A DNA stretch of 20,863 nt from Ignavibacteria bacterium (GCA_041694835.1 JBGFRZ010000075.1:1-20863), one strand, 5' to 3'. Positions 7,931 through 17,261 are shown, counted from the stretch's first letter. Notes: generated from the letters alone by a model not told the origin. Numbers and translations are program-made.

Positions 7931-10915
7931 TTACTTCTTAATCCTTATCACCTTACACTCGTCTATATAAAAAAGAGAGCCTTCTACGGCTTGGGTGCCG
8001 TAAATCCGGCCGATGTTTCTCATGTAGTTTTTGAGCTGAAAGATATGTTTCTCTGAATACTCCTCGCCAGTTTTATATTCGATGATCTCCATGCCGCCAT
8101 CAAGAAATATTATTCGGTCTATTCTAAATTTTTCGCCTCCCGAACTCACGAATTCCACTTCATTCCTGCCGGCTTTCCCGAACCACTTCGACAATTCCAT
8201 TTTTTCCATAGCATTTAAAATAGTCGTCTTTATTTCATTTTTATCCCCATCGAATTTCATCTCAGCTGCCGAGTTGTTTATCAGCGATTCCAAAAAATAC
8301 GGGAATTCATCCAATGAATCTATCGTGTCTATCTTTGAAAGAATGTGATGGATGAAAACTCCCCTCTCGGAGCATCTCATCCTTTTGGCGTCCGTATAAT
8401 AATCTAAATCGACCTCTTCCTTTCTTATTCTTTCGCTCCAGTGCACCTTTGATTTAGAAGTCAATATCCCGCAGGGATTTTGAATCGCATCTTTGATTTT
8501 CCTGACGAATTCTGTTTCATCGCTGACGCCTATATTGCAGTTCTCAAACATGACGGTAAACGGATTCCTGTTGCGATCGCTTTCAAGCATATAGACATAA
8601 AGTTCGTCCGCGGCGCGAGTCATCCCCACATAAAGCGAGTTAAGGTCGTCGAGCAACTCTTCTTCCTCGTTTTCACACTGCATCTTTCTCAACTCGGCGG
8701 AAAAAATAAGATAGTCCTTTTTTATGTACCTCAAATCCAAAGTGCCATCTTTCACGACGTGTTTGTTTTCTTTTTTCTGGGCGGGCAGAAAAGGCAGCAC
8801 GACCACCGGATAACTCAGCCCCTTGGCTTTATGAATCGTGGATACGTTTACGGCATCAATGAACTTCGGCAGTACAACCTGAAACTCTTCCGGCTCGGCT
8901 TTTTGCCAGTGGTCGAGAAAGTTTATAAGCGAATTCTCCCTTAAGTTTTCCCGGTCTTTAAGAATCTCAAGCATCCTCATTATGAACGCATCGTGGCCGG
9001 GAAATTTTTTCTGTATATCGTATTTATCCAAAATCAATCGCACAATATCGTAAGGAGCAAGACGATTCGAAAGTTCGAGGATTTTCCCAATATATTCGTC
9101 GTAAACCGGGCCAAATCTCTCGGAGAACAAAATGTAAAGAGGTCGGCCGTCAAAAGAACCAAAAAGCCTTTTTTCTTCAAAAAAACTAAAAATTGCGCGT
9201 CTTTCAATTCCGGAAACAGCGCGAAAAATATCGCCGGAAACAAAAGACGCGAAAGAAAGATTGTCCGATGGCATTTCCAAAAAACCGAGGAATGAAATGA
9301 TTCCCCGGATAACCGAGTTTTCCCTCGCGCTCATAGTAATTTCCGAAACCACCGGATAGCTTTCCGCAAGAAGCCATGATGTGATTTTTCTCACCTCTTC
9401 GTTCTTTCTTACAAGAATCGCTATATCGCTGCGATTATATCTCGCGCACAAATCCGAAATCAGCGGTATTATGTTTTCTTTCGTCATCTCGTCGAGTTCT
9501 TCTTTGTTTTTTTCCGCAAAGAGCTTTTTGACAACCACACGGCCGCCACCCGGATCTTTCCGTCGAGACGCTTTCTGACATGCAGTGGTATATGAAGAAA
9601 GTCTGTTTTTGGCGAGACCGGTTTTGGCAAGATTTTCCATACTAAAAATTTTATTATTGAACTCGACAATCTTCTTCTTACTTCTGAAATTTCTGTCGAG
9701 AAGATAACCCTTTTTATTCTTGATGAGAAAGTCATTCTTGGCGATGTCGAAAAGACCCGCCTGTCCACCCCTAAATCGATAAAGCGCCTGCTTCTTGTCC
9801 CCCACATAAAACAAACTGCCACCTGAAGCGAGCGAGTTTTCAACAAGAGGAAATAGATTTTTCCACTGAATCTCGCTTGTATCCTGAAACTCGTCTATCA
9901 GATAGTGATTTATTTTTTCTCCAAGCATATAGTATATGGACGGCACAGAACCTTTTTTGATGTAATCGCTTACTTCCATGTTAAGATCCGATATAAAAAC
10001 TATTCTGCGGGCATGCTTGTACTCTTGAAGCTTTTCCTCGACGGCTCTGTATATGGATATGTAAGAACCAAGTCTGGTGCGGGATAGCAATTTGAAATAA
10101 TCGTCCATCTTTTTTCTCAACCGCGCGGGCATTTCCTCAAGTTGGGTTTCGGTTATTTTCTCAAAATCAAACTCTGTGGCTTTTCTGATTATCGACCCGG
10201 CTGTTCTGTTTTTCTTCAATGTTCCACCGTAATTTATCAAATCGTTTTTTATTTTTTCTCTCAAATCAACAAGTCTCTCAAGCGAGCCGCCCGATTTAAA
10301 CTTCAGTCCATATGTCTTTTCCTTCTCGTAAAGAAACTCTATATTTTTCAAGAACAACTTTTTGGGATTCCAGATGCCCGAGCTTTCGGTAGTCAGATAA
10401 GAAGTGATGAAATCATCGAAAATTCCCGATATGCGCGAGCCCGATTTCAGACCGGAGAGGACATCGTCAACCACATACTCTATGCATTCGGAAGGATTCA
10501 TCTCTATATCGTACCTCGGCGGCAGACCCATTTCCACGGATGAGGAGAGAGCCACGGTGTTTATGAAGCTGTCTATGGTCTGGACGTTGAAATCAAGGTA
10601 GTTCTCAAGTATCTCTCGAACAATCGTGATGGCATTTTTGGAGAGCTGCCTGTCGGAAAAGCGGGCGAGGTAGCCTGAATCGTCGTACTCTTTCAACTTT
10701 TTGATTGTTTTTTCATCCCCCTGAGACACTTTTTTCATCCAATCGAGGATTCTGTGTTTCATCTCGTTCACGGCATCGTTCGTGAAGGTTATGGCCAGTA
10801 CATTTCTGAAATTAAAGCCGGAAAGAATAAGAGTGACAAAGTGAAGCGTTAGCTGATAGGTCTTGCCGCTGCCCGCCGATGCCTCGAGTGTTTTTATCTG
10901 GGGTGATTTTGACAT
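7931..10915 (-). CDS. addA: AddA/RecB-like SF1 helicase with a C-terminal PD-(D/E)XK nuclease
   Basis: EASAGSGKT, AITFTN, TIDSF, IDEFQDTS, VGDKKQALYRFRGG, NFRS, TIHKAKGL and YVGMTRA; C-terminal RG...H...E...RIDR...IIEYKTG...QL..Y. The ATG at 10915 is preferred over the TTG at 10936. Confidence 0.88.
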   Translation of the reverse strand: MSKSPQIKTLEASAGSGKTYQLTLHFVTLILSGFNFRNVLAITFTNDAVNEMKHRILDWMKKVSQGDEKTIKKLKEYDDSGYLARFSDRQLSKNAITIVREILENYLDFNVQTIDSFINTVALSSSVEMGLPPRYDIEMNPSECIEYVVDDVLSGLKSGSRISGIFDDFITSYLTTESSGIWNPKKLFLKNIEFLYEKEKTYGLKFKSGGSLERLVDLREKIKNDLINYGGTLKKNRTAGSIIRKATEFDFEKITETQLEEMPARLRKKMDDYFKLLSRTRLGSYISIYRAVEEKLQEYKHARRIVFISDLNMEVSDYIKKGSVPSIYYMLGEKINHYLIDEFQDTSEIQWKNLFPLVENSLASGGSLFYVGDKKQALYRFRGGQAGLFDIAKNDFLIKNKKGYLLDRNFRSKKKIVEFNNKIFSMENLAKTGLAKNRLSSYTTACQKASRRKDPGGGRVVVKKLFAEKNKEELDEMTKENIIPLISDLCARYNRSDIAILVRKNEEVRKITSWLLAESYPVVSEITMSARENSVIRGIISFLGFLEMPSDNLSFASFVSGDIFRAVSGIERRAIFSFFEEKRLFGSFDGRPLYILFSERFGPVYDEYIGKILELSNRLAPYDIVRLILDKYDIQKKFPGHDAFIMRMLEILKDRENLRENSLINFLDHWQKAEPEEFQVVLPKFIDAVNVSTIHKAKGLSYPVVVLPFLPAQKKENKHVVKDGTLDLRYIKKDYLIFSAELRKMQCENEEEELLDDLNSLYVGMTRAADELYVYMLESDRNRNPFTVMFENCNIGVSDETEFVRKIKDAIQNPCGILTSKSKVHWSERIRKEEVDLDYYTDAKRMRCSERGVFIHHILSKIDTIDSLDEFPYFLESLINNSAAEMKFDGDKNEIKTTILNAMEKMELSKWFGKAGRNEVEFVSSGGEKFRIDRIIFLDGGMEIIEYKTGEEYSEKHIFQLKNYMRNIGRIYGTQAVEGSLFYIDECKVIRIKK

Positions 10916-10938
10916 CTTTTTACAGTTCGCAGACAAAA

Positions 10939-12120
10939 TTAAGACAGACCTATGTCGGATGGCGCCCGTCCAAGTGATTTTAGAAGCTCTATGACATCGG
11001 ATATGCGCTCGGCGATCTTCCTGCCGGAGGCTGCTCTTTGAGGATAAAGATAATAAAGCGATTGATACTCTTCGGGGGTTACATTTATCATGACGGAGTT
11101 CGCTCCCGAAAGGAGAGCCTTTTGAGCGGCATTTTTTCTATCAAGAGTTTCGGTGGCTGTAGTAACAAGTATCCGAGAGTCGGGATAAATTATTCTGGTC
11201 CTCGCTATAGTGTCCAAAACTAAATCGATAGGAGGGGCGTTAACTCCACAGAGGGGTGTGTCGGGGTTTGGAATAAGCGGTCCAAAAGAGAACATCTCGA
11301 CACCCATGGACGCCGTCGTTTTTATATCTTCCAATATATCTTTTTTCGACTGACCTGGAAGGCCAAGAAGAAATCCGCTGATTATCATATAACCGATATT
11401 TTTCAAACGACCAAGCAGCGAGAGCCTTTCTTCTAAATGGTGTCCCGGACGATATTTTTCGTATAAAGATGCGTTAGCGGTTTCAAATCTCATGAGAACC
11501 CCGCGGGCGCCAGAGTCGTAGAGCTTCTTGTATGTAGATATCTCGCGCTCGCCTATGCTTAAAACTATGAGGACCGGGTTTTTCTCCATTACCGTTTTCA
11601 CTATCGCCGCGAGTTTTTCATCGTCATAAAACGGATCTTCGCCGGATTGGAAAACAAGAGCCTTGAAGCCCAATTTATTTACGGCATAATCCGCAGCTGA
11701 GACGATATCTTCAATGCTCATTCTGTAACGGGACAAATTGACATTATCTTTTCTTAACCCGCAGTAAAGACAGTTGTTCCGGCAGTGGTTTGAAAACTCA
11801 ATTATCCCGTGAACACACGAAGAATTTCCTGTGTGTTCCCTGCGGAGCTTGTTGGCAATCTCTCTGATATTTTCCTTTTTTTCCGTAAGTCTGATATCCG
11901 TTTTGGCGAGTTCGTCGAAGAGATCCTTCCACGCCTCAATCGCCAGTTGCGCCTCTTTTTCTCCGACTTTCCTTATTACAAAGCCGCCTTGAGCGTAAAC
12001 ATAATCACCGACGGAAATCTCGTAAAAATCACTCCTGGCGCGCTTACGCTGACCGAAGTAATCAACCGTCGCAAAATTTTTTTCCACCTCTACGACTTTC
12101 CCGGGAATTGAATAACACAT
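10939..12120 (-). CDS. Fusion of a HypC/HybG/HupF chaperone domain and a HydE-like radical SAM enzyme (393 aa)
   Basis: The N-terminus MCYSIPGKVVEV...ATVDYFG...VGDYVYAQGGFVIRKV..KEA follows the HypC pattern MCxxIPxxV...VGDxV. It continues into IIEFSNHCRNNCLYCGLR (CX3CX2C), RYRM, QSGED, LSIGE, RFET, GLPGQS, FGPLIPNPDTPL, TTA, GANSVM and YYLY, typical of HydE. The start is set at the ATG at 12120 so that Cys is residue 2. Confidence 0.88.
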   Translation of the reverse strand: MCYSIPGKVVEVEKNFATVDYFGQRKRARSDFYEISVGDYVYAQGGFVIRKVGEKEAQLAIEAWKDLFDELAKTDIRLTEKKENIREIANKLRREHTGNSSCVHGIIEFSNHCRNNCLYCGLRKDNVNLSRYRMSIEDIVSAADYAVNKLGFKALVFQSGEDPFYDDEKLAAIVKTVMEKNPVLIVLSIGEREISTYKKLYDSGARGVLMRFETANASLYEKYRPGHHLEERLSLLGRLKNIGYMIISGFLLGLPGQSKKDILEDIKTTASMGVEMFSFGPLIPNPDTPLCGVNAPPIDLVLDTIARTRIIYPDSRILVTTATETLDRKNAAQKALLSGANSVMINVTPEEYQSLYYLYPQRAASGRKIAERISDVIELLKSLGRAPSDIGLS

Positions 12121-12172
12121 ATTATTGACTTGAGACCGATGACACTCCGCTAAAACCTTGCCACAAAGTAGG

Positions 12173-12708
12173 AATAGGACGCAGATTTTCGCAGATTTGA
12201 TAGATATTAAAAACATCTGCGCCAATCTTGTCAAAATCGGCATTTACCTGCGTCCAAAAATGAAGAAGCGGAGCAGAAATAGGACGCAGATTTTCGCAGA
12301 TGAGTTTATAGTTGCTTTAATCTGCGTTTATCAAAGTTGTTTCTGCGTTCATCTGCGTTCAATTATTTTTTAGGACGCAGATTTACAGGATTATCGCAGA
12401 TTAAAAACTTTACCGCGAAATCACGAAAATTAGAAATCACAAAATTCTTTACAAGTATTTTCGTGTTTTCGCGCTTTCGTGATTCAAATCTTTTTTCTTC
12501 TGCGTTCAAAAATAAAAAAGTGGTTGTAGAAATAGGACGCAGATTTTCGCAGACGAGTTTATAGTTGCTTTAATCTGCGTTTATCAAAGTTGTTTCTGCG
12601 TTCATCTGCGTTCAATTATTTTTTAGGACGCAGATTTTCATAGATTTGGTAGATATGCCAATTTTGTCAACATCGGCATTGAGCTGCGTCCAAAAATAAA
12701 AAAGCGGT
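12173..12708. repeat. Array of five self-complementary units (order A-B-C-B-A) between hydG and hypC-hydE
   Basis: TAGGACGCAGATTT begins at 12175, 12280, 12371, 12533 and 12624. The complementary CTGCGT(C/T)CAA begins at 12248, 12353, 12500, 12606 and 12684. Positions 12275-12384 and 12528-12637 form a 110-bp direct repeat with one mismatch (12301 T vs 12554 C). Confidence 0.92.
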
Positions 12709-12784
12709 TAATGAGTTTTAGTGAAGCTTCAACAATCCCGACTTACATAAAACGGTCTTAAGCCCGAAGATTATGGACTACGGC

Positions 12785-14179
12785 TTAAAAAAATTCGTCT
12801 CGCTTTCCGTCTTTTATATCCTTCAATTTTTTTTCTGTCTCTTTTTTTAGTGAAGCGTTTTTTATTTGATTTAAATACAACCCTATTAACTTATAGCCTT
12901 TCTCGTAAGTTTCTCGGCGCGAAAAATCCTCCAGATATTCGGCAAATGTAAGAAGTCCGTTCGGACGACAGTATTCGTGAATCTCTCCTGGTTTGGCAAG
13001 AGTCATGAAATCGCGCCCCGTCCGACCGCTTCTGTAGCATGCTGTGCAAAAACTCGGAAGCAATCCCTGCTCTATTATGTCGTCGACAACGGATGAAAGC
13101 GTTCTGTTGTCAGATACGGAAAACTGCGGCTCGCCGCCTGATTTCCCATAGCCGCCCACGGATGTGACCGAGCCGGCGGATGCCTGTGATATCCCTATAT
13201 GAAACGCTTTCATCCTTATCCATGGATTTTCCCTGGTGCTGATTATCATGCCAGTATAGGGGACGGCGAGCCTCAGCACCGCTATTATTTTCAGAAAATC
13301 ATCGTCGCTTACAGGTTCTTGAGGACTGAAAGGCGACACATTCGCTGATTTGAAGCGGGGAACAGATATCGTATGAGGGCCAACTCCGAATCTCTTTTCG
13401 AGATATGAGGCATGCTCTACAAGAGAAAGAACCTCGAACCTCCAATCATAAAGACCGAAAAGAACGCCGAGACCGACATCATCGATTCCCGCTTCAAAAG
13501 CCCTGTCGTGGGCCGTTATCTGTCTTTCATAGTTCGCTTTGGGGCCGCTGTGGAGCCGTGCATAAGTTCCGCGATGGTATGTTTCCTGAAAAAGTTGATA
13601 CGTGCCTATGCCGGATTTTTTAAGTTTCCGATAGTTCTCGACAGTGGTGGCAGCGATGTTGACATTGACCCTTCTTATACCATTGCCGTCTTTATCCACG
13701 GAATAAATGACTTTTATCGCTTCGGTTATATAATCCACGAGACACTCTTCCGACTCGCCGGCTTCAAGAAGCAATCTCTTGTGGCCGCTGGCGATAAGTA
13801 TCTCCGTCTGACGCGCGATCTCGTCAAGCGAAAGTTTCTTGCGGCGCAAATTTTCGTTTCTTTTGTGAAAGTTGCAGTATTCACAGTCGTTTGAGCAAAA
13901 ATCTGAAATATAAATTGGCGCGAAAAAAACTATACGTTCGCCGTAAATCTCCTTTTTGATTTCCGCCGCCGCATTAAAAAGTTCTTTCCTAAACTCTCTC
14001 CCTTCGGAATTAAGCAGTATCGCCGTTTCTTCCAAATTCAATCCTTTTTTCAAGCGCGCCTTTTCGAGGACTTTCGGCGCCGCATTATCGTACGGCTTAA
14101 GCGACTCGCGAAGTATTCGCTCGATTTTTTCCGCATTGACGATATCACAAACCGTGTTATTCAATTTTTTCACCTTCAA
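12785..14179 (-). CDS. hydG: [FeFe]-hydrogenase H-cluster radical SAM maturase HydG
   Basis: FAPIYISDFCSNDCEYC (CX3CX2C), GHKRLLLEAGE, IRRVNVNIAA, GIGTYQLFQETYH, GVGPHTISVPR (dangler-Fe His) and PSFCTAC-x22-C (auxiliary cluster CX2CX22C). The start could be the TTG at 14179 or the GTG at 14173. Confidence 0.95.
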   Translation of the reverse strand: MKVKKLNNTVCDIVNAEKIERILRESLKPYDNAAPKVLEKARLKKGLNLEETAILLNSEGREFRKELFNAAAEIKKEIYGERIVFFAPIYISDFCSNDCEYCNFHKRNENLRRKKLSLDEIARQTEILIASGHKRLLLEAGESEECLVDYITEAIKVIYSVDKDGNGIRRVNVNIAATTVENYRKLKKSGIGTYQLFQETYHRGTYARLHSGPKANYERQITAHDRAFEAGIDDVGLGVLFGLYDWRFEVLSLVEHASYLEKRFGVGPHTISVPRFKSANVSPFSPQEPVSDDDFLKIIAVLRLAVPYTGMIISTRENPWIRMKAFHIGISQASAGSVTSVGGYGKSGGEPQFSVSDNRTLSSVVDDIIEQGLLPSFCTACYRSGRTGRDFMTLAKPGEIHEYCRPNGLLTFAEYLEDFSRRETYEKGYKLIGLYLNQIKNASLKKETEKKLKDIKDGKRDEFF

Positions 14180-14525
14180 CGCTTATAATTTTTATGTCGT
14201 TTCCGCCCGCGAGAGCCAAATACGCGCCCTTGCAGACCTGGCATTCTTTTAAAATTATGCTTACTTCGGCAAAATCTTTTGTTACTTTTGCGCCGCAGGA
14301 TTTACATATCAGATACGGCTCTTCCGTCTCAATAATCACGTCCGCTCCCGAAAATTCGCCTCCTTCGAATAAATGGTCGCGAAATGAATGGATAAGGAAA
14401 TCGGGAGCTATCCCCGACGCTTTGCCTATGGAAAGTTTTATCATAGATACTTTTTTTATATTTTTTTGGGTCGCGATCTTTTTTAATTTTCTGAATATTT
14501 CCGTAGCACATGCAAGCTCGTGCAT
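14157..14525 (-). CDS. hypA: Hydrogenase nickel incorporation protein HypA/HybF
   Basis: MHE N-terminal Ni motif when started at the ATG at 14525 (GAGG about 10 nt upstream), IG..SG, two CxxC motifs (CKSC, CQVC), and a C-terminal GG.DIKIISVE. Confidence 0.92.
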   Translation of the reverse strand: MHELACATEIFRKLKKIATQKNIKKVSMIKLSIGKASGIAPDFLIHSFRDHLFEGGEFSGADVIIETEEPYLICKSCGAKVTKDFAEVSIILKECQVCKGAYLALAGGNDIKIISVEGEKIE

Positions 14526-14535
14526 AGTGATTGCC

Positions 14536-15480
14536 TCAAGAGCCTCTTTCAAAAAAATAAAGTATTTCGTTCAGGGTCGCTTTAACGCTTTTGGACATTT
14601 CTCCGGACAAACTCATTTTCTCAGGTTGAACACCTATCACGAATATTTTTGCTGTGACATTTTCCTGAAGATAATCCAAAAAAAGCCTTATTCCAAAGCC
14701 ATGCGTAGAAAAGTTTAGATTCGGTAATTGTTCGGGCGAAAAAATTCCGAGAGTGCCGGGGGGCGTTCCATTTGAAATATAAATTGAATCAAACACAATG
14801 AGTGTGTCTGGATTTCTCGCGGATATTTTTGAAACATAGTTTTCCGGAGACATCCCGGCATCAATATACAGGCATCCCGGTTTTTTCTTCGCTTTTCTTA
14901 TAACTTCGGGTCCGAAACCGTCATCCCCCTTCATGGGATTCCCCGCTCCGACAAAAACGGTGTTTTTTCCGAGTGAAAGATACAGCGCAATAAAAGCAGC
15001 GATTTTGCGGGGGGTGTTTATGTCAACAAAAACGTGTTTTTCATCGCGCCACCCCGAAAAAGACGCTCCCGCGTCCACATAAAACAAAATCGTCGACTCG
15101 TCGATGGACAACCTGGCGATGATATCATCCGCCCGTCCGTCTTTTAAAATAAATATTTTCTTAAATTCTTTTTTGCTGTAACCTTCCACGATAAGCAGAT
15201 CCAACAAATCTTCAAACTTGTTAAAAATTTCTTCCGGTTCAAAATCGGCATTTTTCCTCATTGAAAATGAGACTTTTTTATCTGATGCCACGGCGGAAAC
15301 ATGGGCGCCGGCTTCAAAAAATCGATGCGAATCCTTCCCCGGAACATCGGCGGCGAAATCCCCGCCGGAATGCTTCAACGTTCCCACTCTCAGTCCCATC
15401 GCTTTGAATATCTGCACGAGTGATTCGATGAGTTTTGTTTTACCTGAACCGCTTTCGCCGACCACAGAGATTATATCCAT
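14536..15480 (-). CDS. Fusion of a MobB-like P-loop NTPase and a HycI-type hydrogenase maturation endopeptidase
   Basis: Residues ~1-165 carry VVGESGSGKT, RVGTLKH, DVPGKDS.RF.EAGA and DLLIVEGY (MobB). Residues ~172-314 carry VGAGNPMKGDDGFG, IDAGMSPEN, PD.LIVFD, STH and IGVQP (HycI/A31 peptidase). One uninterrupted frame. Confidence 0.88.
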   Translation of the reverse strand: MDIISVVGESGSGKTKLIESLVQIFKAMGLRVGTLKHSGGDFAADVPGKDSHRFFEAGAHVSAVASDKKVSFSMRKNADFEPEEIFNKFEDLLDLLIVEGYSKKEFKKIFILKDGRADDIIARLSIDESTILFYVDAGASFSGWRDEKHVFVDINTPRKIAAFIALYLSLGKNTVFVGAGNPMKGDDGFGPEVIRKAKKKPGCLYIDAGMSPENYVSKISARNPDTLIVFDSIYISNGTPPGTLGIFSPEQLPNLNFSTHGFGIRLFLDYLQENVTAKIFVIGVQPEKMSLSGEMSKSVKATLNEILYFFERGS

Positions 15481-16377
15481 TCAATTATTGAAAATCATCC
15501 GCCATAATCTCGATATTTTCCCCGCATCGGAGCGTGAGGCAACCTTTATTCTTTCTTTTTTATCAACTGTCGCAAAACCTGCGACGGAATCGTTGAATTT
15601 AAACTCAAACAATACCTTCTTGTCACGTCTCCTCGCTTTTGATATCTGGCAGGCTAGGGGGAGTATTCCTTCATCGCTCTTTCCTCCAAGCATTTCAGCG
15701 AGATACCCGGCTATCTCCCTCCGGTCGGTTATTTTTAGCCACACAACGTCATTTTCCGATAGAGCCGGCGCAGGAACGCCATCATCATCGACAAGCGGTT
15801 CAACTTCAAGCATAATTTTCCCCGATGCTTCACACCGCTCATGTGCAGAGGGGGGGTCTATGCTGATCTGGGTTTTATACGGCTCTTCGGAATAATCGAT
15901 TGAAACCACTATGTTTTCCGTGTCAAATACCTCGTTCAGAAACTCTTTCATTTTATCTTCACAACTCTGTTCACTCTCGAAAAAAAACACCCGTTCGATT
16001 ATTCGTGGGATTTTCTCCTGCATTATGTTTGAAAAATTTGGAAGAACGCTTTCCTCAAGTTTGTATGAATAAATGGCTTTGTCGATATCTTCCCATGAAA
16101 GAGAAAAATCGAGTTCATAAATTTTAGGGTTTTCCGAAATAACTGCGCTGGTCGTAAGAATATTGGCCTGTTTTATATCAAATATAATCAGGAATGCACC
16201 GTATATGAATTTGTCGGGAAGAATGAGCCTGCCTTTCACCACGCCAAGCCCCGGGGATACTTTGTTCAAAAAATCGAGAGCTTCGGCGAAATTGCCTTTC
16301 GCACTTTTATAAGCAAGTTCCGCCTCATAGTGATTGCATCCCGCAGTTTCCATCAAAAGCTTTATTTTATTTTCCAT
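15481..16377 (-). CDS. Hypothetical protein with an N-terminal UBA-like three-helix domain
   Basis: 298-aa ORF packed between xerC (2-nt gap) and mobB-hycI (0-nt gap). KIKLLMETAGC...EAELAYKSAKGNFAEALDFL resembles the EF-Ts N-terminal/NAC UBA-like repeat. Confidence 0.75.
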   Translation of the reverse strand: MENKIKLLMETAGCNHYEAELAYKSAKGNFAEALDFLNKVSPGLGVVKGRLILPDKFIYGAFLIIFDIKQANILTTSAVISENPKIYELDFSLSWEDIDKAIYSYKLEESVLPNFSNIMQEKIPRIIERVFFFESEQSCEDKMKEFLNEVFDTENIVVSIDYSEEPYKTQISIDPPSAHERCEASGKIMLEVEPLVDDDGVPAPALSENDVVWLKITDRREIAGYLAEMLGGKSDEGILPLACQISKARRRDKKVLFEFKFNDSVAGFATVDKKERIKVASRSDAGKISRLWRMIFNN

Positions 16378-16379
16378 AA

Positions 16380-17261
16380 TTATTTTCTCAATCGCGCCTT
16401 TTCATAAACTTTTTTGAGCTTTTCAAGCGTAAAATGCGTGTAGATTTGCGTCGTGGACAGGCTTGAATGTCCTAACATCTCCTGTATGCTCTTTAAATCA
16501 CAACCCCTGTCGAGAAGATGGGTGGCGAAAGAATGCCTGAAAGTATGCGGGGTCACCCTTTTTAGCACGTAGCTATTTTTCATCCAGTTCTTGAGAAGTT
16601 TGCTTATGCCTCGCGCCGTAATTCTGCGACCTCTCAAGTTTAAAAACACCCCGGGTGACTCACTACCAATTTTTCTTCTTTCTTCGAGATATTTTTTAAA
16701 AATATAAGTTGCGGGTTCACCTATTGGGACAATCCTCTCCTTTTCTCCTTTTCCGCGGACTTTTATCATCCCTCCGAGCAAATCAATATCGCCGAGATTT
16801 AAATTCACAAGTTCAGCTATTCTTATGCCGCTGGAATACAAAACCTCTATTATGCATTTCGTTCTCAACGCCGGGAAAGAATCGGATGACGGCAATTCGG
16901 CGATTTTCTCAACCTCGTTCTCCGAAAGAAAAACCGGCGCTTTTCTCTCTTTTTTCGGACTATGGAGATGGAGCAAAATCCTCGAGTCCAGTAATTTCTG
17001 GTTTATGAGATACCTGAAGAATGACCGCACCGCGGAAATCTTTCTTATCACGGTGTTTTTCTCGAGATTCTTCTTGCTTAAATGGAGCAGATACTTCCTC
17101 ACGATATATTTGTCTATCTGCGAAAATTCCATTATATTGTTTTTCTTTAGGAAAATCTTGAGGTCACTCATGTCGTTTTTGTAAGACCCGACGGTATGAA
17201 TGGAGTAATTCCTTGTTCCTTTAAGGTAAGTGTAAAATCTTTCCAACTGAACATTCATCAT
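16380..17261 (-). CDS. xerC: Tyrosine recombinase XerC/XerD family
   Basis: RNYSIHT..SY..D, RKISAVRSFF, LYSSGIRIAEL, GKGEKERIVP, TPHTFRHSFATHLL, IQEMLGHSSLSTTQIYTH. Classic position after dprA-topA. Confidence 0.93.
   Translation of the reverse strand: MMNVQLERFYTYLKGTRNYSIHTVGSYKNDMSDLKIFLKKNNIMEFSQIDKYIVRKYLLHLSKKNLEKNTVIRKISAVRSFFRYLINQKLLDSRILLHLHSPKKERKAPVFLSENEVEKIAELPSSDSFPALRTKCIIEVLYSSGIRIAELVNLNLGDIDLLGGMIKVRGKGEKERIVPIGEPATYIFKKYLEERRKIGSESPGVFLNLRGRRITARGISKLLKNWMKNSYVLKRVTPHTFRHSFATHLLDRGCDLKSIQEMLGHSSLSTTQIYTHFTLEKLKKVYEKARLRK

Follow-up and report, generated by a model that had tools for sequence, protein, structure and literature searches.

A candidate hybrid pathway for [NiFe] hydrogenase maturation, with HydG and a HypC-HydE-like fusion, in an Ignavibacteria bacterium

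Genes of the maturation cluster

We analysed a 20,863-nucleotide stretch of DNA from an Ignavibacteria bacterium (GCA_041694835.1 JBGFRZ010000075.1:1-20863), here referred to as the window, which holds a cluster of hydrogenase maturation genes between positions 10939 and 15480. As a preliminary description had proposed from the sequence, the cluster consists of four co-oriented genes with six domains, all of which were matched by Pfam and NCBIfam profiles on the minus strand: a MobB-like domain joined to HycI, followed by HypA, HydG, and HypC joined to a HydE-like radical S-adenosylmethionine (SAM) domain (Table 1). The open reading frames (ORFs) of hypA and hydG overlap, likewise as described, and share 23 nt (14157-14179). 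We conclude that the cluster is probably the maturation set of the organism's own group 4 [NiFe] hydrogenase, in which HydG and the HypC-HydE-like fusion would replace HypC, HypD, HypE and HypF.

Table 1. Positions of the cluster genes, their domains and adjoining features in the window.
Feature	Position	Strand	Profile match or remark
298-aa protein	15481-16377	-	
MobB-like+HycI protein, 314 aa	14536-15480	-	
MobB-like P-loop NTPase domain, residues 1-170	14971-15480	-	Pfam MobB 108.7 bits (residues 3-118)
HycI-type maturation endopeptidase domain, residues 171-314	14536-14970	-	TIGR00072 92.1 bits (cut-off 47.45)
HypA nickel metallochaperone	ORF 14157-14552, likely 14157-14525	-	Pfam HypA (PF01155) 69 bits (cut-off 28.9)
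HydG, radical-SAM tyrosine lyase (CO + CN on iron site)	12785-14179	-	TIGR03955 536.9 bits (cut-off 312.15)
Spacer of dispersed repeat, outside the system	12121-12784		664 bp between hydG and the fusion gene
HypC+HydE-like fusion, 393 aa from Met-Cys start	ORF 10939-12243, start 12120	-	
HypC domain, residues 1-80	11881-12120	-	Pfam HupF_HypC (PF01455) 57.4 bits (cut-off 28.5)
HydE-like radical-SAM domain, residues 81-393	10939-11880	-	TIGR03956 244.8 bits

The HydG protein could be aligned from end to end with a solved HydG structure (4wcx_A, 515.6 bits; residues 11-464 of the query and 20-480 of the chain). It contains a CX3CX2C motif at residue 95 and a CX2CX22C motif at residue 378, which we take to be the N-terminal radical-SAM motif and the C-terminal auxiliary-cluster motif of HydG, respectively, and it has kept a histidine that presumably serves as an iron ligand. 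Each of the two cysteine motifs was present in 57 of the 58 HydG genes located at fusion loci. Judged by its sequence, the HydG of the window looks fully canonical, and the kept motifs suggest that it cleaves tyrosine to carbon monoxide (CO) and cyanide (CN) on iron.

In this genome, hydG does not adjoin the fusion gene, the two being separated by a repeat-filled spacer with a direct repeat of 113 nt and a 33-nt unit that occurs five times. The 113-nt unit yielded 78 blastn matches on 35 contigs of the same genome, and the spacer resembles a small mobile or repetitive extragenic palindromic (REP)-like element put into the operon. The corresponding gap is 9 nt in the genome G061, which belongs to the same family.

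The start of the fusion gene had to be moved from position 12243 to the Met-Cys codons at 12120, which represent the start in all 25 aligned homologues; the longer ORF was rejected, its 41 upstream codons extending into the dispersed repeat. The N-terminal domain of the shortened protein matched a solved HypC (2z1c_A) at E 4.7e-10, with a score slightly below the cut-off for TIGR00074 (46.7 versus 48 bits). The residues M1, C2, P6 and G7 were invariant in the 25 homologues, as was the Gln within the segment YAQGGF.

The assignment of the C-terminal domain to HydE stood with regard to the best-scoring family and the fold, and failed with regard to the NCBI cut-off, so the domain is called HydE-like here. 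HydE was by far the best family, with PylB as the runner-up at 135.4 bits, and the alignment with HydE of T. maritima (7o1o_A, 236.6 bits; query 82-388, chain 42-345) covered the whole length of the domain, which has its radical-SAM motif CX3CX2C at residue 113. We also inferred a quick maximum-likelihood tree from 128 HydE sequences, 124 of them distinct and four loci being duplicates, in which the canonical HydE proteins were taken from the same phylum. In this unrooted tree, the 20 canonical HydE proteins and the 108 HypC-fused domains were split by a branch with 99% support in the Shimodaira-Hasegawa-like approximate likelihood ratio test (SH-aLRT), and the domain of the window was placed on the fused side. 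Two residues beside the radical-SAM loop, Cys102 and His104, were present in 108/108 fused domains. Both positions separate the groups fully, and the canonical proteins have Arg at the position of His104 (20/20) and, in most cases, His at the position of Cys102.

The HypA protein probably starts at MHE (14525), and the Pfam match begins at residue 10 of the ORF. We take this MHE N-terminus and the two CxxC pairs read from its translation to be HypA motifs, while the score against the NCBIfam profile TIGR00100 was below the cut-off (58.8 versus 88.1 bits). The endopeptidase domain was additionally matched by Pfam HycI (53.6 bits) and, below the cut-off of 119.1 bits, by TIGR00142 hycI (77.2 bits).

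Hydrogenases and maturation genes across genomes

The window is an entire contig of a 1.9 Mb genome that is 97.23% complete and consists of 89 contigs. Six-frame profile searches of this genome, of the kind that the preliminary description had proposed, identified a single [NiFe] large subunit of 396 aa on contig C59, which has the motif CGICSTSH close to its N-terminus and ends in DPCYCCTER plus a cleavable tail of 34 residues, both Cys-pair motifs being intact. The NuoH-, NuoB- and NuoC-like subunits, Mrp-antiporter-like subunits, MnhE and a ferredoxin were encoded on the contigs C59, C12 and C8, and these partner subunits were 41-71% identical to those of one Mbh-type operon in genome G103, a resemblance by which we assign the hydrogenase to group 4, Mbh-type. 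The large subunit on C59 is the likely substrate of the HycI domain, which would remove the tail after DPCYCCTER. No gene for HypB, HypD, HypE, HypF, HydF or HydA was found above the cut-offs in this genome: HydA, HypD and HypB had no match, and the best matches to HypE (56 versus 251.6 bits), HypF (30.1 versus 466.1 bits) and HydF (85.5 versus 325.55 bits) were distant paralogues. Apart from the domain of the fusion protein, the genome had no HypC match.

We modelled the whole fusion protein with AlphaFold2, which returned a single compact body (predicted local distance difference test, pLDDT, 92.0; predicted template modelling score, pTM, 0.91). A complex predicted between the HypC domain and the large subunit scored 0.51 against 0.00 for the best control, which is above a mark reached by 58/80 solved complexes and 2/110 mismatched pairs, although scores between the mark and 0.60 were obtained for just 7/80 solved complexes and for both of the passing mismatches. 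The runs shared at least 69% of the contacts and the pLDDT of the partner was at least 75. The prediction lends weak support to such a complex.

To place the cluster in a broader context, we compared lists of fusion, HypD and large-subunit genes by hand for 201 genomes of the phylum. The full fusion was present in 9 of the 201 genomes: G000, which is the genome of the window, G014, G061, G125, G103, G071, G105, G004 and G069, the linker being longer in the latter two. A plain HydE with 32-43% identity was found in about 115 other genomes of the phylum. HypD was identified by six-frame profile search in 71 genomes, in all cases over the cut-off. Large subunits of [NiFe] enzymes were detected in 82 genomes, of which 68 had HypD, 9 had the fusion, none had both and 5 had neither (G003, G012, G112, G179 and G200). 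All eight fusion genomes other than that of the window contained the large subunit and HydG, one contained HydF (G004), and HypD, HypE, HypF and HydA were each found in 0/8, with the control genome G031 being positive for HypE, HypF, HydA, HydF and HydG. Within the phylum, the expected pattern was thus recovered, with large subunits in all nine fusion genomes and HypD in 0/9. In G038, which is from the same genus as the fusion-bearing G014, is 78% complete and gave no fusion match, the HypD match (G038:C73:8790-9807) is broken into two parts and interrupted by several in-frame stops; hypD may be decaying there.

By pattern scanning with each species represented by one genome, we identified 340 stretches that encode the fusion, and all locus counts below refer to the best 80 of these 340. 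The best 80 include bacteria from the Omnitrophota, WOR-3, Elusimicrobiota, Planctomycetota (with a Scalindua record), Lentisphaerota, Firestonebacteria, Margulisiibacteriota, Zixiibacteriota and Brevinematales, records labelled Delta- or Pseudomonadota, and DPANN archaea from the Altiarchaeota, Aenigmatarchaeota, Micrarchaeota and Woesearchaeota. For a cross-lineage sample we selected 50 of the 80 loci for diversity, leaving out four Elusimicrobiota-labelled loci. The co-occurrence extended to this wider sample, with a large subunit in 47 of the 50 genomes, HypD in one and HypE over the cut-off in one (G208 in both cases); the exception was HydA, which was found in 8/50. In five of the cross-lineage genomes, taken from different groups, HypF and HydF were both found in 0/5.

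It could be argued that the assemblies, which derive from metagenomes, have missed ordinary hypBDEF genes, or that such genes have diverged beyond recognition. The hydrogenase operon of the window's genome is indeed split over three short contigs of the 89, and the completeness of the 50 cross-lineage genomes is unstated. Yet the very search that was positive for HypD in 71 of the 201 phylum genomes found it in 0/9 of the fusion genomes and in 1/50 elsewhere, an artefact would require the loss of four different genes from almost all of these assemblies, and none of the 80 loci had HypD, HypE or HypF in its flanks. We consider an artefact of this kind extremely unlikely.

The gene neighbourhoods connect the module with [NiFe] hydrogenases. 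HydG was located within 600 nt of the fusion gene on the same strand at 56/80 loci, and the flanks of up to 10 kb contained a large subunit at 25 loci, a HycI-type protease at 21, a HydA-like match at 4 and HydF at 2. In G014, genes for ferredoxin-like, FAD/NAD, small and large subunits of a group-3b-like enzyme are followed on the same strand by those for HycI, a short HypA, HydG and the fusion, while an Mbh-type operon in G103 is followed by the genes for HypA, HydG and the fusion. We examined 27 large subunits, comprising the 25 from the flanks and those of the window's genome and G103. In all of these, the L2 motif was present and the tail had a length of 7-48 residues, and 24/27 had the L1 motif, the other three being cut by the edge of the locus. 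The module and HypD or HypE were distributed in a near-exclusive manner, and the module was linked to [NiFe] operons.

These neighbourhoods also bear on the possibility that the module is only a companion of [NiFe] genes and acts on some other Fe-CO/CN enzyme, [FeFe]-type or unknown. Consistent with such a role, a HydA-type gene was located within about 10-20 kb of a [NiFe] large subunit in four of the eight cross-lineage genomes with HydA (G207:C2, G208:C1, G228:C180 and G229:C196), in two of which it was also near the fusion and HydF, and HydF was near the fusion at 2/80 loci. Moreover, according to passages in PMC11216029, archaeal [FeFe] hydrogenases often occur without known maturases, and the pairing of enzyme and maturase is therefore loose. 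On the other hand, HydA was not found in 42/50 of the cross-lineage and 9/9 of the phylum fusion genomes, the module comes after HypA (G103) or HycI and HypA (G014) within [NiFe] operons, and the fusion partner of the radical-SAM enzyme, HypC, is a chaperone for [NiFe] large subunits specifically. A different target enzyme is in our view very unlikely.

Single chains that combine HypC with radical-SAM domains are not limited to the size seen in the window. We identified 19 protein clusters (P0121-P0139) of 727-946 aa with this combination, and the three clusters that were tested exceeded the cut-offs for both HydE and HydG (3/3), representing HypC-HydE-HydG triple fusions. At least three origins are needed to explain the triple fusions in the tree of the HydE domains. 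Some of them were found in records labelled Nitrospirota and Omnitrophota.

Among the other genes in the window, all large ORFs of which are on the minus strand, we identified DprA, topoisomerase I, a XerC-type recombinase, UvrD/AddA-type helicases, a PD-(D/E)XK nuclease, ComEC, a metallo-beta-lactamase-fold protein, a helix-turn-helix protein and a 298-aa protein. The families identified are not hydrogenase families and the window therefore lacks hydrogenase subunits and further Hyp or Hyd genes, in agreement with the claimed absence of hypB, hypD, hypE, hypF, hydF and hydrogenase structural genes. The 298-aa protein, tightly packed between the XerC-type recombinase and MobB-HycI, had no match in Pfam or NCBIfam. 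A counterpart with 48% identity is found at the same place in G061, and we rejected it as a general part of the system because it was conserved in G061 only and was found in the flanks of 0/80 loci. A scan of positions 10800-16500 identified 14 promoter-like sites (shuffled mean 9.7, standard deviation 3.7) and 12 terminator-like sites (shuffled mean 7.0, standard deviation 2.5), numbers that are uninformative on the structure of the operon.

The MobB-like domain scored 108.8 bits against TIGR00176 (cut-off 76.2) and was the sole MobB homologue identified by tblastn in its genome. HypB was missing from this genome and from 5/5 related fusion genomes, which would leave room for the MobB-like domain as a stand-in for HypB. 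This idea was not supported. The domain may be an ordinary MobB, since its fusion to HycI is rare (both domains in 3 clusters among 15 matches), the flanks of the 80 loci contained no MobB match and MoaC is present in the genome. The domain could act in molybdenum cofactor synthesis or in the insertion of nickel. A similar protein is located at the same place in G061.

Two small ORFs are located between the NuoB-like and NuoC-like hydrogenase genes on C59 (locus L001, G000:C59, 1932-2622, minus strand), and by eye, without a family search, they resemble a nucleotidyltransferase/HEPN-type pair. A DUF2204 nucleotidyltransferase is located between the hydrogenase operon and hypA in G103.

A putative route to the [NiFe] iron site

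The suggestion of the preliminary description that the iron site of [NiFe] enzymes could be made independently of HypD, HypE and HypF was supported by the co-occurrence patterns and the gene context, that is, by comparative genomics throughout. Neither complete sets of hyp and hyd genes nor a lack of large subunits characterised the genome of the window or most of the genomes with the fusion. In the route that we envisage, HydG would cleave tyrosine and build an Fe-CO/CN-cysteine unit on its C-terminal cluster, a reaction that is established for canonical HydG and is suggested by the motifs in this case. The HydE-like domain would take over the Fe-CO/CN unit and, by radical chemistry like that in the maturation of [FeFe] enzymes, free it from the cysteine scaffold, but would keep the iron mononuclear rather than dimerise it, and Cys2 of the tethered HypC domain, perhaps together with Cys102 or His104, would capture the unit. 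The ligand set would become Fe(CN)2(CO) by some further step, unless the site is non-canonical. Next, the HypC domain could deliver this iron unit to the large subunit in its apo form, after which HypA would insert the nickel and the HycI domain would cut off the tail, as expected from the roles of their families.

Several observations weigh against this route, one of which concerns the ligands. The product of canonical HydG has 2 CO to 1 CN, while the iron of [NiFe] enzymes has 1 CO to 2 CN. A remodelling step would be needed to adjust the ratio, and no candidate gene for it was found. Two turnovers of tyrosine give two of each ligand, however, and the supply is therefore sufficient in principle. 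A bolder variant, in which the enzymes served by the module carry a non-canonical set of 2 CO and 1 CN, seems to us quite unlikely.

Other observations against the route come from individual genomes. G004 has HydF beside its HydG, HydF is located 4 kb from the fusion at the loci L071 and L075, and HydA accompanies the fusion in the eight cross-lineage genomes mentioned above; in the fusion genomes that contain HydA or HydF, HydG may have an [FeFe] enzyme as an additional or alternative client. G208 contains HypD and HypE beside the fusion and hence both routes, and no large subunit was found in 3/50 of the cross-lineage genomes, the sample for which completeness is unstated. The genome G003, which is 100% complete, has four large-subunit matches in the absence of HypD, HypE, HypF, HydG, HydA and the fusion; the absence of Hyp genes is therefore not always paired with the module, and either G003 uses a third maturation route or detection failed. 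Finally, the cluster in the window is surrounded by genes for DNA metabolism with the hydrogenase located elsewhere in the genome, the HydE-like domain scored slightly below the TIGR03956 cut-off of 254.6 bits, and the invariant Gln of YAQGGF is at what is presumably the place of the functionally important His51 of E. coli HypC.

Some of these observations would also be accounted for by a partial replacement, in which HydG and the HypC-HydE-like fusion supply one type of ligand, for example CO, and the rest is provided by unrecognised proteins. The anaerobic source of CO in [NiFe] maturation is unsettled. The misfit between the ligand ratio of canonical HydG and the [NiFe] site points in this direction, as do the retention of HypD and HypE beside the fusion in G208 and the occurrence of large subunits in G003 without any of the known ligand-making genes. 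Against it, the cyanide makers HypE and HypF were missing together with HypD in 8/8 of the phylum fusion genomes, HypE was missing in 49/50 of the cross-lineage genomes and HypF in 5/5 of the subset, and canonical HydG makes both ligands, according to the abstract of PMC11826987. We regard a partial replacement as unlikely.

On balance, we favour a complete tyrosine-derived radical-SAM route to Fe(CN)2(CO) that is run by HydG and the HypC-HydE-like fusion without HypD, HypE and HypF. It would serve enzymes of groups 3 and 4 in hundreds of uncultured bacterial and DPANN species and would form an evolutionary bridge between the [NiFe] and [FeFe] systems. To our knowledge, the maturation of [NiFe] hydrogenases has been treated as universally dependent on HypC, HypD, HypE and HypF, with cyanide derived from carbamoyl phosphate, and the origin of the CO in the absence of oxygen is a question of long standing. 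If correct, the route would define tyrosine as the source of both ligands and imply that the two maturation systems are able to exchange parts. It would also alter the way in which genomes are read for hydrogenase capacity. Proteins of the fusion type are publicly annotated as HydE, radical SAM protein or biotin synthase, and genomes with the fusion would be scored as unable to mature [NiFe] enzymes because the genes are annotated as [FeFe] maturases or as biotin synthase. For heterologous production, the protease, HypA, HydG and a single fusion protein would represent a compact set.

Comparison with known maturation systems

Full-text literature searches, with subscription journals mostly outside their scope, yielded no paper that proposes a role for HydG or HydE in [NiFe] maturation. 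The words "maturation" and "HydG" are absent from the main text of a preprint on Elusimicrobia (10.1101/765248), and no relevant passage was found in PMC9324843. [quoted passage not shown] Unlike the cluster of the window, that operon is described with HypB, the main text of the preprint contains neither "HydG" nor "HypD", and the passage on the fusion proposes no pathway.

Hybrid complexes of [FeFe] and [NiFe] hydrogenases have been described in archaea, most of which lack HydEFG according to the passages on them in PMC11216029. Both cases join the two hydrogenase worlds, and a few of the fusion genomes have HydA near the [NiFe] large subunit. The archaeal hybrids, as presented in these passages, consist of structural subunits, whereas it is the maturation genes that are linked here and most of the genomes have no HydA.

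Compared with the maturation of the H-cluster of [FeFe] enzymes by HydG, HydE and HydF, HydG is a full member of its family and the whole length of the HydE-like domain is covered by the alignment to HydE of T. maritima. The differences are that HydF and HydA are missing from the genome of the window, that the HydE-like domain is fused to HypC and that the presumed target is a [NiFe] enzyme. The fused domains also differ from canonical HydE in having Cys-x-His in place of His-x-Arg, and are located on the opposite side of the 99% SH-aLRT branch.

In canonical [NiFe] maturation, HypD acts as the scaffold while HypE and HypF synthesise cyanide, as outlined in a passage of PMC9431212. In common with the HypABCDEF and endopeptidase system of E. 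coli, HypA and a HycI-type protease are present, the HypC domain retains the Cys at its N-terminus, and the large subunit ends in a tail that can be cleaved. The differences are that HypD, HypE, HypF and HypB were not found in the genome and that HypC, rather than being paired with HypD, is covalently joined to a radical-SAM enzyme. The components belong to known families, and their wiring is probably a previously undescribed one that replaces the core of the textbook pathway.

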